A stretch of 64,000 bases of DNA from an uncultured Kiritimatiellota bacterium (GTDB lineage Bacteria > Verrucomicrobiota > Kiritimatiellia > RFP12 > UBA1067). The stretch covers positions 5,471-69,470 of the forward strand of contig CAKURH010000002.1 in assembly GCA_934675625.1 (NCBI GenBank), read 5' to 3'. Under the pieces are notes generated by a model that ran no database searches, was not told where the DNA came from, and saw nothing but the letters and a program-made list of their open reading frames with translations. A program made the position numbers and the translations under genes. Numbering within the stretch: position 1 is the first letter of the stretch; every line of letters starts with the position of its first letter. Below are positions 1,448-11,130 of this stretch, in pieces.

Positions 1448-2404
1448 ATGATTGAAAACCAAATCCTCACGGTCAAGGAAGGCGGCGTCCGGCTGGACGT
1501 CGCCCTTCTTCATGCCTTTCCCAACGCGACGCGGGCGTTCATCCGCGAAGCGGTCGCCGACGGGGCGGTGCTCGTCGACGGACGGCGCGCGGCGAAGGGC
1601 CTGAAGCTGCGCGGCGGCGAGACGATCTGCGTGAAGGAGCTGCTCGAGGCCGACGACAACCTCGTCGCGCCCGCCGGGGCCTGTCCCCCATCCCTGTTCG
1701 AAGACGCCGCGCTCCTCGCGTTCGACAAGCCGGCCGGCGTGCCCGTCCAGCCGCTCACCTGCCGCGAGACGGGCACGCTCATGAACGCCGTCGCGACGCG
1801 CTACCCCGACTGCCGCGCGCTCGGCCCGGTGCTGACGCGCCTAGGGGAAAGCCCGCTCATGGCCGGGGCCCTGCACCGCATCGACGCGGACACGTCCGGC
1901 CTCGTCCTCGTCGCGCGCACGGCCGAGGCGTTCGAGAGCCTGCGCGCCCAGTTCGCCGCGCAGACCGTCCGGAAGACCTACCTCGCGCTCGTCGAAGGAG
2001 CCGTCGCCGTCGGCGGCACGCTCGAAAACGACCTCGTCCACGATCCGACGCTCCCGTTCTGCCGAATGATCGACGCGCACCGCAACCGCCTGACGCGCGC
2101 CCAATGCGCGCGGCTGAAGCCGCTGCGCGCCGTGACACAGTTCCGCCCCCTCGCGCACACGACGGTCGAGAGCGAGGTTCGCACCCTTCTGGAAGTCACG
2201 ATCTTCACGGGCGTCACGCACCAGATCCGCGCGCAGCTCGCGCTCGCGGGGCATCACATCGTGAACGACCGCCTCTACGGCGCGTTCGCCGTCGAGGGCC
2301 AGACGGGGCATTGCCTCCACGCCCTCGCGGCGGCGTTCAGGCATCCCGTGTCCGGGAATCCGGTCGAGATCCGGACGCCGCGCCCGGCCTGGGCCGAATC
2401 CTAA
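1448..2404 (+). CDS. RluA-family 23S rRNA pseudouridine synthase (S4-like N-terminus, RluD/RluC type)
   Basis: 318 aa. Catalytic motif HRIDADTSGLVLVART (HRLDxxTSG). Also TYLALVEG and THQIRAQLA motifs typical of the family. Confidence 0.85.
   Translation: MIENQILTVKEGGVRLDVALLHAFPNATRAFIREAVADGAVLVDGRRAAKGLKLRGGETICVKELLEADDNLVAPAGACPPSLFEDAALLAFDKPAGVPVQPLTCRETGTLMNAVATRYPDCRALGPVLTRLGESPLMAGALHRIDADTSGLVLVARTAEAFESLRAQFAAQTVRKTYLALVEGAVAVGGTLENDLVHDPTLPFCRMIDAHRNRLTRAQCARLKPLRAVTQFRPLAHTTVESEVRTLLEVTIFTGVTHQIRAQLALAGHHIVNDRLYGAFAVEGQTGHCLHALAAAFRHPVSGNPVEIRTPRPAWAES
1676..1688 (+). repeat. isolated copy of GGGGCCTGTCCCC inside the pseudouridine synthase CDS
   Basis: Exact 13-mer identical to the copy at 27031-27043. 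It is followed by CAT, as in the copies upstream of dnaK. It encodes GACPP. Confidence 0.7.
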
Positions 2405-2465: not shown

Positions 2466-2591
2466 ATGAACGAGAAGAAGGAGAAGAAGCGTATGCACAA
2501 GGAACTCAGAACCCGAATCGAGGTCATCGCCGCGCTCGCGGCGGTCGCGGCCCTTTACCTGCTGAACTGGCTGGCGGGGAACCTGCCGTAA
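2466..2591 (+). CDS. small putative membrane protein (41 aa)
   Basis: MNEKKEKKRMHKELRTRIEVIAALAAVAALYLLNWLAGNLP: basic N-terminus plus one hydrophobic helix. Sits directly behind a TGnGATAAT promoter and 13 nt before the Na/Pi transporter start. Too short for the ORF track. Confidence 0.35.
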   Translation: MNEKKEKKRMHKELRTRIEVIAALAAVAALYLLNWLAGNLP

Positions 2592-2604
2592 CGGAGCGCG
2601 CACG

Positions 2605-4287
2605 ATGAACGACTACATTCAGCTGACGATCGCCGTCCTCGGCGGCCTCGCCCTCTTCGTCTACGGCATGGGCCTCATGAGCGACGGCCTCAAGGAGACC
2701 GCCGGCGAGAAGATGAAGGCCGCGCTCGGCTACATGACGAAGAACCGCTTCTTCGCGATTCTCGCGGGCACGACCGTGACGGCGCTCATCCAGAGCTCGT
2801 CCGCGACGAGCGTCATGACGGTCGGCTTCGTAAACGCCGGCCTCATCACGCTCCAGCAGGCCATCGGCGTCATCTTCGGCGCGAACATCGGCACGACCGT
2901 GACGGGGCAGATCGTCTCGCTCAAGCTCGACGACCTCGCGCTGCCCGCCGTCACGCTCGGCGTCATCGGCCTCATGGTCGCCAGGCGCACCGTGACGCGC
3001 GGCGTTTGGCGCACGATCCTCGGATTCGGCCTCCTCTTCTTCGGCATGACGATGATGTCGCAGGAACTGAAGGTGCTCGCGAAGGATCCCGGCTTCGTCG
3101 CGTTCTTCTCGCGCTTCGACTGCACGCCGGGCGCGAGCGGCTACCTGCCGCCGCTCGCCGTGCTCGGCGCCGTCGCCGTCGGCACGCTCTGCACGATGCT
3201 CGTGCAGAGCTCGTCCGCCACGATCGGCATCACCATCGCGCTCGCCGAGACGGGCGTCATTTCGCTCTGGACGGCCGTCCCGATCGTCCTCGGCGACAAC
3301 ATCGGCACGACGATCACCGCCGCGCTCGCGTCGATCGGCGGCAACGCGAACGCGCGGCGGACGGCCCTCGCGCACGCGCTCTTCAACGTCTTCGGCACGG
3401 TTCTCGTGCTGATCAGCTTCGGCTTCGTCTTCACGAACGCCGACAAGGTGGCCGCGCCGGCCTTCTTCCACCTCGTCGACCTCTGCACGGACGGCAACGG
3501 CTTCGCGGGCGAGACGCCCGGTCGCCACGTCGCGATGGCGCACACGATCTTCAACGTCGCGAACGTGATCGTCCAGACGCCGTTCATTCCGCTTATCGCA
3601 CGGCTCTGCTCGCGCCTCATCGGCGACGACAAGACGGCGCGCGTCCAGGCGCTGGAGCCGCACCTGCTCGCCGCGCCCGCCCTCGCGCTCCACGCCGTGC
3701 GGCTTGCGCTGGGCGACATGACGCGGCGCGCGTGGACGATTTCCTCCGTCGCGCTCAACAACTGCCTTGGCCGCGCGAACGTGGACGAGGAGTCCGTGCA
3801 GAACGCCGAGAAGGAAATCGACGAGATGCAGGCGCGCATCCGCGACTACCTCGTCGCCCTCTCGCAGCGCAAGCTGACCGAGCGCCAGGCGCAGGCCCTG
3901 CCGGAATTCGTCCACTGCGTCAACGACGCCGAGCGCATTTCGGACATCGCCGTGAAGATCTACCGCAAGACGGCGCGCATCCAGCGGCAAGGGCTCACGG
4001 ACGACCTGATCGAGGAGATGACAGACCTGATTGGCCACCTGCGCACCTTCGCACACGACACCGTGCACGTCCTGCGCAAGGGCGGTGCGCTGACCGAAGA
4101 GCCGGCCGTCGCCGAAGCCGAGATCAAGCGGGCGGCCAAGGCGATCTCGAAGCGGTATTCCGAGGCCCTGTGCGCCGCGACGGACGGCCTGCCGCGCGAC
4201 ACGGCGTTCCTGACGGTGCTTGCCGGCGTCCGGGACGTCTCCCGCCACATCGGCAACATCGCCGAGCGCATTTCCGCACTCGGCTAA
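2605..4287 (+). CDS. Na/Pi-cotransporter II-related protein with C-terminal PhoU-like domain
   Basis: 560 aa. Duplicated signature GANIGTTVT / GDNIGTTIT within a multi-TM N-terminal half. Helical PhoU-like C-terminal half. Confidence 0.85.
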   Translation: MNDYIQLTIAVLGGLALFVYGMGLMSDGLKETAGEKMKAALGYMTKNRFFAILAGTTVTALIQSSSATSVMTVGFVNAGLITLQQAIGVIFGANIGTTVTGQIVSLKLDDLALPAVTLGVIGLMVARRTVTRGVWRTILGFGLLFFGMTMMSQELKVLAKDPGFVAFFSRFDCTPGASGYLPPLAVLGAVAVGTLCTMLVQSSSATIGITIALAETGVISLWTAVPIVLGDNIGTTITAALASIGGNANARRTALAHALFNVFGTVLVLISFGFVFTNADKVAAPAFFHLVDLCTDGNGFAGETPGRHVAMAHTIFNVANVIVQTPFIPLIARLCSRLIGDDKTARVQALEPHLLAAPALALHAVRLALGDMTRRAWTISSVALNNCLGRANVDEESVQNAEKEIDEMQARIRDYLVALSQRKLTERQAQALPEFVHCVNDAERISDIAVKIYRKTARIQRQGLTDDLIEEMTDLIGHLRTFAHDTVHVLRKGGALTEEPAVAEAEIKRAAKAISKRYSEALCAATDGLPRDTAFLTVLAGVRDVSRHIGNIAERISALG

Positions 4288-6120: not shown

Positions 6121-8123
<2,003 letters not shown>

Positions 8124-8228: not shown

Positions 8229-10157
8229 TTACTTCATCGTGAAGTCGGCGTCGACGACGTCATCGCCGTTCTTCTTGCCGTCGTCCTTCGGCGGCTCGCT
8301 GTTCGGCGGCGGCGTGCCCGCGCCCGGATTCGCGCCGGCCGCGCCCTGCGCGGCCTGCGCGCTGGCATACATCTCCTGCGCGACGGGCTCCATCGCCTTC
8401 ATGAGCGCCTCCTGCTTCGCCTTGATGTCGGCGATCGGGGCCGGCGGCTGCTTCGCGAGCAGGTCCTTGAGCTCCTTGAGCGCGGCCTCGACCGGCGCCT
8501 TCTTGTCGGCGGCGATCTTGTCGCCCGCGTCCTTCAGCGTCTTCTCGACCTGGAAGGCGAGCCCGTCGGCCTTGTTGCGGTCCTCGACCTCGGCGTGGCG
8601 CTTCTCGTCCTCGGCCGCGTGGGCCTCGGCGTCCTTGCGCATCTTCTCGATCTCCTCCTTCGAGAGACCGCCCGCCGCCGTAATCGTGATCTTCTGCTCC
8701 TTCTGGGTGCCGAGATCCTTCGCCGAGACGTTGAGGATGCCGTTCGCGTCGATGTCGAACGTGACCTCGATCTGCGGGACGCCACGCGGCGCCGGCGGAA
8801 TGCCGTCCAGGTTGAAGTTGCCGAGCGCCTTGTTGTCGCGCGCCATCTTGCGGTCACCCTGGAAGATCGCAATCGTCACGGCCGGCTGGTTGTCCGCCGC
8901 CGTCGAGAAGACCTGCGACTTCTTCGTCGGGATCGTCGTGTTGCGCTCGATGAGCGGGGTCAACACGCCGCCGAGCGTCTCGATGCCGAGCGTCAGCGGG
9001 GTCACGTCGAGCAGGAGCACGTCCTTCACTTCGCCCTTCAGGATGCCGCCCTGAATGGCCGCGCCCATCGCGACGACCTCGTCCGGGTTGACGCCCTTGT
9101 GCGGCTCCTTGTTGAAGAGGCTCTTCGCCTTCTCCTGAATGAGCGGCATGCGCGTCTGGCCACCGACGAGGACGACCTCGTCGACCGTCGAGAGCTCCGC
9201 GTCCGCCATGCACTTGCGGCACGGCTCGGCGGTGCGGTTTACGAGATCCATCGTCAGCGTCTCGAGTTTCGAGCGCGTCAGCGTCGCCGTCAGGTGCTTC
9301 GGCCCCGTCGCGTCCGCCGTGATGAACGGCAGGTTGATGTCGTAGGTCGTCGCGCTCGACAGGGCGCATTTCGCCTTCTCGGCCTCTTCCTTCAGGCGCT
9401 GGAGGGCCATCATGTCGTTGCCGAGGTCGATGCCCTGCTGGGCCTTGAAGTCCTCGATCATCCACTTCATGATCGCCTGGTCGAGGTCGTCGCCGCCGAG
9501 GTGCGTGTCGCCGTTCGTGGCCTTCACCTCGAAGACGCCGTCGCCGATGTCGAGGATCGAGATGTCGAACGTGCCGCCGCCGAAGTCGTAGACCGCGATC
9601 TTCTCGTTTTTCTTCTTGTCGAGGCCATAGGCGAGCGAGGCCGCCGTCGGCTCGTTCACGATGCGCTTGACGTCAAGGCCCGCGATCTTGCCCGCGTCCT
9701 TCGTCGCCTGACGCTGCTGGTCGTTGAAGTACGCCGGAACCGTGATGACGGCCTCCGTGATCTTCTCGCCGAGAAACGCCTCCGCGTCTTCCTTCAGCTT
9801 GCGGAGGACCATCGCGGAAATCTCCTGCGCCGTGTAGATCTTGTCGTTCACCTTCACGGCCGCATCGCCGTTCGGCGCCGCGACGACCTCGTAAGGCACC
9901 ATCTTGATCTCGTCCGTCATCTCGCTGAAGCGACGGCCGATGAAGCGCTTGATGGAGTAGATCGTCGACTTCGGGTTCGTGACCGCCTGGCGCTTCGCCG
10001 CCTGGCCGACCAGGATCTCGCCCGTCTTCGTGAACGCCACGATCGACGGCGTCGTCCGCGCGCCCTCCTTGTTCGGGATGACCGTCGCCTCGCCGCCTTC
10101 CATCACGGCCATGCAGCTGTTCGTCGTGCCAAGGTCAATACCAAGTACTTTTGCCAT
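8229..10157 (-). CDS. dnaK: molecular chaperone DnaK (Hsp70)
   Basis: 642 aa. [26 protein letters not shown]-type motif ([13 protein letters not shown]), and a full substrate-binding domain and lid. Confidence 0.97.
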
Positions 10158-10227
10158 AGTCTTTTCTCAACTTTCTTTCGCCCACCACGGGCGACGCCTC
10201 GTTTCTTGCAAACTCCATGCCAAACAT

Positions 10228-10314
10228 GGGGACAGACCCCAGCCCTTGGGGACATATCCTCGAAACATGGGGACAGACCCCCGGAATTGCGGCCAAATCG
10301 TGGGGACAGACCCC
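10228..10314 (-). repeat. four direct copies of the 13-nt mini-palindrome GGGGTCTGTCCCC (one degenerate) upstream of dnaK
   Basis: Plus-strand GGGGACAGACCCC at 10228-10240, 10269-10281 and 10302-10314, with a degenerate GGGGACATATCC at 10248-10259. On the coding strand each reads GGGGTCTGTCCCCA(T/C)G(T/A)TT. Confidence 0.9.
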
Positions 10315-10316
10315 TT

Positions 10317-10363
10317 GAAAAACAGAAAGTGTGACATTCTGTCGCGACAGAATGTCACACTTT
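10317..10363 (-). terminator. intrinsic terminator (38-bp perfect palindrome plus T-tract) after the 243-aa hypothetical gene; an operator role is not excluded
   Basis: AAAGTGTGACATTCTGTCG/CGACAGAATGTCACACTTT (10326-10363) is a perfect palindrome. On the minus strand it is followed by CTGTTTTTC. It lies 36 nt after the stop at 10399 and about 170 nt upstream of dnaK. Confidence 0.65.
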
Positions 10364-10398
10364 TAGCGCGTGGCACACTACGGTGCCCACCCGTGTCC

Positions 10399-11130
10399 CT
10401 ATTTCATGAAATCGCTGCGCCGACGGCGCACCTTGGCGAGGAAGCTGCTGACCGCCCCGCCCTTTTTCGTCTTCGGCCCAAACGTCAAGGTCTGCTGGGG
10501 CTGTTTCGGCTTCGGCGCGGCGAGACGCGCGCGCAGGTCGTTCACGCTGTCGATGCCGAGCTTCGCGGCGCAGGGCGTGCCGGCCTCCAAGCCCGCCAGC
10601 TCCGGAAAGTCGTCCAGCGGATAGAGGAGCCCGCAGTTGAAATGGTAGATGCTGCGGTTGACGATCGGGAGCAGGATGCGCACCTTCACGCCGAAGCCGA
10701 ACTTGTAGGCGCGCACCTTCACGCGCGCGGCCTCGCGGTTGTGGTAGCGCGCCTCGTCAGGCATCGTGGCGTCCTTCGAGACGAAGAGCGCGTCCATGTC
10801 CTCCTCCAGATAGTAGCGCGGAATGCTCATCTTCCACCGGCGGCAGTCCGGCCCCTGCACCATCACCAGCGCATACCGCTCGTTCGCCTTCGGAATCTCC
10901 TCGTAGGCGACCACGCGCACGATGCACGCCAGCGGCAGGTCGAGCGGCATGATCTCGCCCTCGCCGCGCCGCAGCCGGTCAAGATACGCAATCGCCGCGA
11001 GGTCTTCCGGCGTCTTCTCCGGCTTCTCAGGCCGCTCGGGCCGCTCGGACTTTGGAGTCCGTTTGGCCCGCTTGGGCCTCTTGGGCTTTTCAAAATCTTT
11101 CTGCGCGTCGTTTTCGTCGTTGTCGTTCAT
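10399..11130 (-). CDS. hypothetical protein (243 aa) with highly charged N- and C-termini
   Basis: ATG start preceded by GGAAAGG. N-terminus MNDNDENDAQKDFEKPKRPKRAKRTPKSERPERPEKPEKTPED. Basic C-terminus KTKKGGAVSSFLAKVRRRRSDFMK. Codon usage matches the genome. No family recognised. Confidence 0.6.
   Translation of the reverse strand: MNDNDENDAQKDFEKPKRPKRAKRTPKSERPERPEKPEKTPEDLAAIAYLDRLRRGEGEIMPLDLPLACIVRVVAYEEIPKANERYALVMVQGPDCRRWKMSIPRYYLEEDMDALFVSKDATMPDEARYHNREAARVKVRAYKFGFGVKVRILLPIVNRSIYHFNCGLLYPLDDFPELAGLEAGTPCAAKLGIDSVNDLRARLAAPKPKQPQQTLTFGPKTKKGGAVSSFLAKVRRRRSDFMK

Follow-up and report, generated by a model that had tools for sequence, protein, structure and literature searches.

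The repeats that stand upstream of dnaK in this uncultured gut bacterium are, with a probability that we put at about 85%, REP units of a REP/RAYT system, carried as passengers in the spacer between an enhancer and its promoter, and not the operator of a heat-shock regulator. In this reading they are copies of a selfish repeat that is spread over the whole genome. REP stands for repetitive extragenic palindrome, and RAYT for REP-associated tyrosine transposase; the latter is a domesticated HUH/Y1 enzyme of the IS200-like kind, which acts on single-stranded DNA and is encoded here in the same genome. We assign the repeats to such a system because the dispersed family, the enzyme, and the linkage between enzyme and repeat together constitute a REP/RAYT ('REPtron') signature (PMC3116915, PMC3479197, PMC6006769). 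The family is previously undescribed and ordinary in kind. The window analyzed here, a stretch of 64,000 nucleotides (C2:5471-69470), was taken from a 3.59-Mb metagenome-assembled genome of a gut member of the Kiritimatiellia (G000; 64.7% G+C, 176 contigs). By its DnaK relatives, the lineage belongs to gut or rumen Kiritimatiellia.

The dnaK repeats and the elements that surround them

Rechecking of the coordinates placed exact copies of GGGGACAGACCCC at 10228-10240, 10269-10281 and 10302-10314 of the plus strand, as originally predicted, and a degenerate fourth copy, GGGGACATATCCT, with three mismatches, at 10248-10260 (Table 1). The four units, which read GGGGTCTGTCCCC along the dnaK strand, share a single orientation, are spaced 20, 21 and 33 nt apart, and lie 71–157 nt 5' of the dnaK ATG (10157, minus strand). 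Across the window, 12 matches to the 13-mer with no more than two mismatches were detected, while 1.9 were expected and none of 100 shuffles reached 12. Unit 3 is a degraded unit, as is shown by one of the strain contigs compared below (L138), which has GGGTCTGTCCCC at this place, just one 5' G short of the 13-mer, and not ATATGTCCCC. Single-strand folding of the whole dnaK array was no better than that of shuffled sequences (z −0.5).

Table 1. Features of the window, with positions counted from its first nucleotide
Feature	Position	Strand	Remarks
dnaK coding sequence	8229-10157	-	Pfam HSP70
groES, then groEL	7836-8123, 6121-7755		Follow dnaK; Pfam Cpn10, Cpn60
dnaK 5'-UTR hairpin	10178-10194	-	TCGCCC-gtggt-GGGCGA; covariation
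Putative sigma-54 (−24/−12) promoter of dnaK	10207-10222	-	TGGCATggagtTTGCA (TGGCAT-N5-TTGCA); fits consensus
REP unit 4	10228-10240	-	Exact match; ends 5 nt upstream of −24 element
REP unit 3, decayed	10248-10260	-	Three mismatches
REP unit 2	10269-10281	-	Exact match; missing from two-unit strains L132, L133
REP unit 1	10302-10314	-	GGGGTCTGTCCCC on dnaK strand; exact match; most distant from promoter
38-bp perfect palindrome, probable enhancer (UAS)	10326-10363		TGTGACA / TGTCGCGACA / TGTCACA boxes
Single copy in ORF 1448-2404	1676-1688	+	Variant GGGGCCTGTCCCC
Single REP copy in aroB	26759-26771	-	Read as R-G-L-S-P
Three-unit REP array in aroK-aroB fusion gene (26554-27987)	27010-27064	-	In-frame; encodes ...PGTDPQNVGTGPKNWGPVPK...

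Consistent with the original prediction, neither a CIRCE element nor a sigma-70 promoter was found upstream of dnaK (a sigma-70 scan of positions 9900-10700 returned nothing), and no HrcA was detected in the genome. However, the repeats are not the only conspicuous candidate regulatory DNA of the region, as had been supposed, because a sigma-54 promoter directly next to the last repeat had been overlooked. The corresponding word, GGCAC-N5-TTGC, recurs at a fixed 46–56 nt from the dnaK ATG in 15 of 19 other orthologous regions (DnaK 73–93% identical), and the genome encodes rpoN as well as two enhancer-binding proteins (bEBPs; C43:29314-30846 and C21:34700-36121), which we read by eye as one GAF-type and one REC-type (receiver). 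Genome-wide, the sigma-54 word is not in excess (16 matches versus 28 for the reversed control); the signal is specific for the 5-nt spacer, and 12 of the 16 matches are intergenic (p 1.6e-7), so that the support for this word comes from its position, spacing specificity and conservation, not from its genome-wide count. The intergenic matches precede genes that, read from their N-termini, are gltB-, carB-, glnB- and small-heat-shock-like. We infer from these sequence data that transcription of dnaK is sigma-54-dependent. An earlier candidate, CCCCATGT within the unit as a sigma-32 −10 box, was given up when relatives turned out to conserve the sigma-54 element.

Two further elements accompany this promoter. 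The 38-bp palindrome on the far side of the repeats is a probable enhancer for a sigma-54 activator, and possibly doubles as the terminator of the upstream gene; we attribute it to dnaK because, where relatives have a different upstream gene, TGTnnCA-type palindromes or repeats again precede the sigma-54 promoter of dnaK. In the leader, each of the six pairs of the hairpin is preserved by a two-sided change in at least one of 11 relatives. This hairpin could stabilize the mRNA, or could act upstream of the ribosome-binding site in the manner of an RNA thermometer. Elsewhere in the genome, a candidate small heat-shock protein gene (G000:C120:2304-2639, read from its N-terminus) has a sigma-54-like promoter upstream (C120:1826), which is preceded by TGTCCCG, GCGACA and TGTCGCA boxes. 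Taken together with the promoter and enhancer of dnaK and the lack of HrcA, this gene suggests a sigma-54/bEBP heat-shock regulon in gut Kiritimatiellia.

Variation of the array among close relatives argues against the proposal that the repeats are regulatory DNA for dnaK-groESL. Among strain contigs that agree exactly in GroES, carry the same palindrome and have almost the same promoter, the number of units is two (L132, L133), four (the window, L131) or five (L134, L137, L138); unit 1 was found in L131, L134, L137 and L138, and not as such in L132 or L133. Furthermore, the array is missing or swapped in relatives that retain the promoter, the palindrome and the UTR hairpin. No REP array was found upstream of dnaK in L001–L005 or L007–L011, an inverted REP pair occurs there in L006, and an unrelated repeat of the CCCCTCAAG family occupies the same spacer in L135 and L139. 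In these last two, CCCCTCAAG and CCCCTCGCG units form a long inverted structure (L135:860-1060, L139:880-1065). The enhancer-promoter spacer of dnaK seems to be a hot spot that takes up several families of repeats. Measured from the centre of the enhancer, the −24 element lies 69, 123 or 144–145 nt away in the strains, and 90 nt (L002, no repeat), 209 nt (L139) or 290 nt (L135) in the relatives.

A dispersed repeat family and its RAYT genes

The original prediction had allowed that the repeat might be a REP-like element scattered over the genome, and this was borne out. The further copies that it named in the window exist (Table 1), and a genome-wide count of the core word GGGGYCTGTCCCC, which is followed by (A), yielded 231 exact copies at 137 loci (112 forward, 119 reverse), as compared with about 1.4 that we estimate from base composition and none for the reversed control word. 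Arrays of two to five units make up 54 of the 137 loci. Neighbouring units show a sharp spacing peak at 21–24 nt; approximately 50 pairs have the same orientation and 15 are 'divergent' inverted pairs, and no convergent neighbours at less than 30 nt were found among the genome-wide copies. The spacers vary in both sequence and length (8–14 nt), although the 13-nt core is exact. In the flank profile, the 3' A after the core (67%) is the sole conserved base, and no conserved tetranucleotide tag (GTAG or CGTC) was seen. The unit is symmetrical at 10 of 13 positions (5 of 6 pairs), and a lone unit folds into a 4-bp stem (−3.9 kcal/mol); inverted doublets of the form GGGGACAGRCCCC-N8-9-GGGGYCTGTCCCC, of which 15 are present at 21–22 nt spacing, give hairpins with 13-bp stems.

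REP copies lie outside called genes more often (44%) than the share of non-coding DNA (15%) would predict (p 6e-25), and 56% lie within called ORFs, a split that rests on a crude home-made gene caller. The term 'extragenic' suits the family poorly because of this latter fraction. Intergenic regions that bear REPs have a median length of 425 nt, as opposed to 71 nt for all intergenic regions. Counts of GGGGYCTGTCCCC over 24 congeners range from 0 to 94. Two non-coding stretches of 1.2–1.4 kb are packed with REPs (G000:C33:12847-14063 and C93:13148-14560), each having nine exact copies plus degenerate ones that together form large inverted blocks.

Other kinds of mobile element were also considered. 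No REP doublet was found in IMG/VR phage contigs. A larger mobile element beside the inverted doublets, proposed since the AT-rich flanks looked alike by eye, was rejected because no conservation of the flanks showed up in BLAST. Mini CRISPR-like arrays and transposon ends of the Tn7 or Mu type were likewise set aside: the loci are too numerous, the spacers measure only 8–14 nt, no associated genes lie near the arrays inspected, and linkage to RAYT accounts for the family.

The genome contains only two Y1_Tnp genes, at C8:44018-44920 (P0001, 300 aa) and C21:5152-6027. Both score above the Pfam PF01797 (Y1_Tnp) cut-off and match the NCBIfam model REP_Tyr_transpos ('REP-associated tyrosine transposase') with E-values of 5e-19 and 2e-20, at scores of 69–73 bits, which are under the equivalog cut-off of 80 bits. 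The HUH-motif residues H61 and H63, and Y173 (in YxxxNPVRAG), are invariant across 43 homologues, several of which are annotated by JGI as 'REP element-mobilizing transposase RayT'. The best fold match to an AlphaFold model (AF2) of P0001 (pLDDT 78) is 4ER8, E. coli TnpA-REP with a REP hairpin (E 9e-6, TMt 0.74); IS200/IS605 transposases rank after it, and a sequence-only PDB search gave a marginal match to 4ER8 (E 0.096). In P0001 a helical region is inserted, and the C-terminal domain is conserved.

These genes and the repeats are closely associated. Within 1.6 kb, the C8 RAYT gene has 10 REP copies, oriented oppositely on either side: five minus-strand copies (four before the gene, one inside) and five plus-strand copies (one inside, four after). 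Two in-frame copies lie in the C8 gene and two in the C21 gene, all in a predicted disordered linker (residues 199–237, pLDDT <50). At 50% identity or more, every one of the 10 RAYT loci, which come from 8 other genomes, lies within 1.5 kb of exact REP copies, while loci with less than 45% identity almost never have them nearby; REPs also flank the RAYT genes of L125, L126 and L207. Congeners with a close RAYT homologue have a higher motif count (median 19.5 versus 3, p 0.002). Moreover, 5 of 80 metagenome loci picked solely for the REP doublet contain a RAYT homologue, where we estimate that about 0.25 would be expected, and several of these five directly adjoin REPs. Counting against a cognate link, the REP-rich congener G011 (65 copies) has a single, 5'-truncated RAYT homologue; in G014 (42 copies), RAYT fragments are found at contig ends only.

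Several observations concern the surroundings of RAYT genes. On a metagenome contig with 51% G+C (Ga0209345_10002116, positions 2520-3284; L216), the same REP doublet stands directly upstream of a RAYT gene; its product shares just 23% identity with P0001, so that quite distant RAYT lineages may have the 13-mer in common. CTTAAG boxes form five clusters of three or four with a period of about 11–12 nt (G000:C8:45013-45051, C21:5034-5072, C24:31007-31045, C119:1545-1572 and C136:1-39). Two of these are directly upstream of the two RAYT genes, the others lie in promoter-like regions beside a TATGGCATA-like word, and in G020 (L126) the RAYT gene likewise has a related array, of CTTAAG/CTTGAG, in front of it. 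The clusters may represent an operator or promoter module that these regions have in common. A large gene downstream of the C21 RAYT gene has a long poly-G tract (G000:C21:6187-6203) in its leader or at its 5' end.

By analogy with E. coli TnpA-REP, the RAYT would recognize, cut and spread the small hairpin-forming REP units, so that catalysis on REP units is the activity that we would ascribe to it. New units would accumulate beside existing ones, about two helical turns apart, and arrays gain and lose units. In dnaK-groES-groEL, one such array lies in a spacer, presumably dispensable, that separates the enhancer palindrome from the sigma-54 core promoter; control of this operon would most likely consist of enhancer, sigma-54 promoter and 5'-UTR hairpin. 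The array itself is presumably neutral, and the main effect that it might have as a passenger, a possible regulatory side-effect, would be to alter the enhancer-promoter distance.

Copies within genes and comparison with described systems

Within ORFs, 33 of 43 REP spacings are multiples of three, as compared with 21 of 45 in intergenic regions (p 0.005), where units are spaced 21–22 nt apart. Sixty percent of the in-ORF copies translate as G-T-G/D-P or G-S/P-V-P. The array in the aroK-aroB fusion gene lengthens a variable loop of the protein by about 20 residues, an insertion that is missing from 11 orthologues. Rickettsia palindromic elements (RPEs) are palindromic repeats of 100–150 bp that are likewise inserted in-frame in protein genes and translated. 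We know of no dedicated transposase for RPEs.

The system resembles the E. coli REP/BIME and TnpA-REP 'REPtron' (4ER8, PMC3479197) in having a high-copy short palindromic unit that occurs in arrays, an enzyme gene of low copy number with units in inverted orientation on its two sides (here at C8), and a common HUH/Y1 fold, 4ER8 being the best structural match to P0001. However, the Kiritimatiellota unit has only 13–14 nt, a 4-bp stem and no GTAG tag that we could see; its arrays are mostly direct repeats at 21–24 nt, unlike the BIMEs with their alternating Y and Z REPs; over half of its copies lie in ORFs; the enzyme is longer (300 aa) and carries the inserted helical region and the conserved C-terminal domain; and the host belongs to a different phylum, Kiritimatiellota. 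With the REPIN-RAYT system of Pseudomonas fluorescens (PMC3116915, PMC3337134) it shares inverted doublets that form hairpins and strongly differing counts in related genomes, although direct-repeat arrays here outnumber doublets by about 50 to 15, and the doublet loops are 8–9 nt long and not tens of nt.

The conserved tetranucleotide that this family lacks, a 5' GTAG or CGTC tag, defines two REP super-families, not REPs as a whole (PMC3733652). REPs inside the tnpA-REP gene, as in both RAYT genes here, are known from TnpA-Y1 subclass 2.4 and related enzymes (Quentin et al. 2018, PMC6006769), so that insertions into RAYT genes have already been described; in unrelated genes, in-frame REP insertions are tolerated in loops (PMC6006769). 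Our literature search found no paper that ties Kiritimatiellae to REP/RAYT.

Alternative explanations and implications

REP arrays lie just upstream of 3 of the 12 intergenic sigma-54-like promoters (p 0.0016, uncorrected for spacer length), and the TGTCCC within the REP core is a box that also occurs where enhancers are presumed to lie, in front of the small heat-shock protein gene and of dnaK in L139; on both counts, REPs may be functionally tied to sigma-54 promoters. A further REP array, at G000:C43:9071-9196, stops 4 nt before a second sigma-54 promoter, TGGCACGGGCTTTGCA, which precedes a putative glutamate-synthase subunit gene (read from its N-terminus only). The C43 and dnaK junctions have the same geometry (...GTCCCCacgtTGGCAC versus ...GTCCCCatgttTGGCAT).

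The dnaK array could have been co-opted, as a copy-number-variable, phase-keeping spacer or as a place where an architectural protein docks, and tune dnaK-groESL between strains. This is compatible with a REP origin, and we regard it as unlikely. The distances in the strains differ by 54 and 21–22 nt, approximately five and two helical turns, in keeping with phase-keeping, as is the intergenic unit spacing of 21–22 nt; three repeat contents have come to occupy the same spacer, REP in two arrangements (window, L006) and the CCCCTCAAG family (L135, L139), and the arrays at sigma-54 promoters point in the same direction. E. coli BIMEs bind IHF and gyrase. Recruitment of Integration Host Factor is listed in PMC3479197 among REP-linked functions. 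However, the strains provide only three independent length states, for which multiples of about 21 nt would be expected from gain and loss of units alone; the distance appears only loosely constrained, given relatives with 90 nt and no repeat or with 209–290 nt; and long spacers are tolerant landing sites, as the lengths of REP-bearing intergenic regions indicate. Equally doubtful is the more general proposal that in gut Kiritimatiellia the RAYT builds phased arrays, by placing each new unit about two helical turns (21–22 nt) from one already present, and that at sigma-54 promoters these have been co-opted as phase-keeping, strain-variable spacers. If it were true, the 13–14-nt REP units inside genes would lengthen surface loops in steps of seven or eight codons, and arrays at sigma-54 promoters, dnaK-groESL included, would tune chaperone expression and might serve as extra TGTCCC activator boxes.

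Growth of the minisatellite type, through replication slippage or recombination and with no transposase, would make the RAYT association incidental. Perfect tandem duplications do occur (at C33:32474, with four 23-nt units, at C26:23163, 69 nt long, and within the C21 gene, 42 nt long), but the spacers between neighbours almost all differ while the core is exact, slippage could not seed 137 separate loci, and RAYT genes are linked to the repeat in 8 other genomes and on metagenome contigs as well; we thus consider this quite improbable. Slightly less probable still is a dedicated operator or enhancer for a dnaK heat-shock regulator, bound cooperatively by a repressor or a sigma-54 activator. 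Units phased about two helical turns apart that abut the −24 element, the TGTCCC box in the core and the lack of HrcA would all fit such a role. Yet the same 13-mer is found at 137 loci, including in-frame positions within the aroKB and RAYT genes, the unit number differs in near-identical strains, the array is missing where promoter, enhancer and hairpin are kept, and the gene behind the second REP-bearing sigma-54 promoter (C43) is the putative glutamate-synthase subunit gene, not a chaperone gene. As for the 'uptake-signal-like' option of the original prediction, a DNA uptake signal as in Neisseria or Pasteurellaceae would likewise be a short, exact, over-represented word, present in equal numbers on both strands. 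Such a sequence should, however, occur about once per kb and fairly evenly, while this motif occurs once per 15.6 kb, is strongly clustered in phased arrays, has patchy counts among congeners and not a genus-conserved distribution, and is tied to RAYT genes, which leaves this option hardly credible.

Reading the dnaK repeats as passenger REP units removes a false lead, in that these eye-catching repeats would not be a heat-shock operator. It also brings to light the likely real control of dnaK-groESL in uncultured gut bacteria, namely a sigma-54 promoter, a palindromic enhancer and a covarying leader hairpin, with no HrcA; such sigma-54 control would be more notable biology than the REP array itself. 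For the repeat family, the result is a compact REP/RAYT system in a phylum for which none is described in the literature searched. Its direct phased arrays and frequent in-frame insertions in housekeeping genes could serve as strain markers, and the in-frame insertions represent a natural experiment on insertion-tolerant protein loops.
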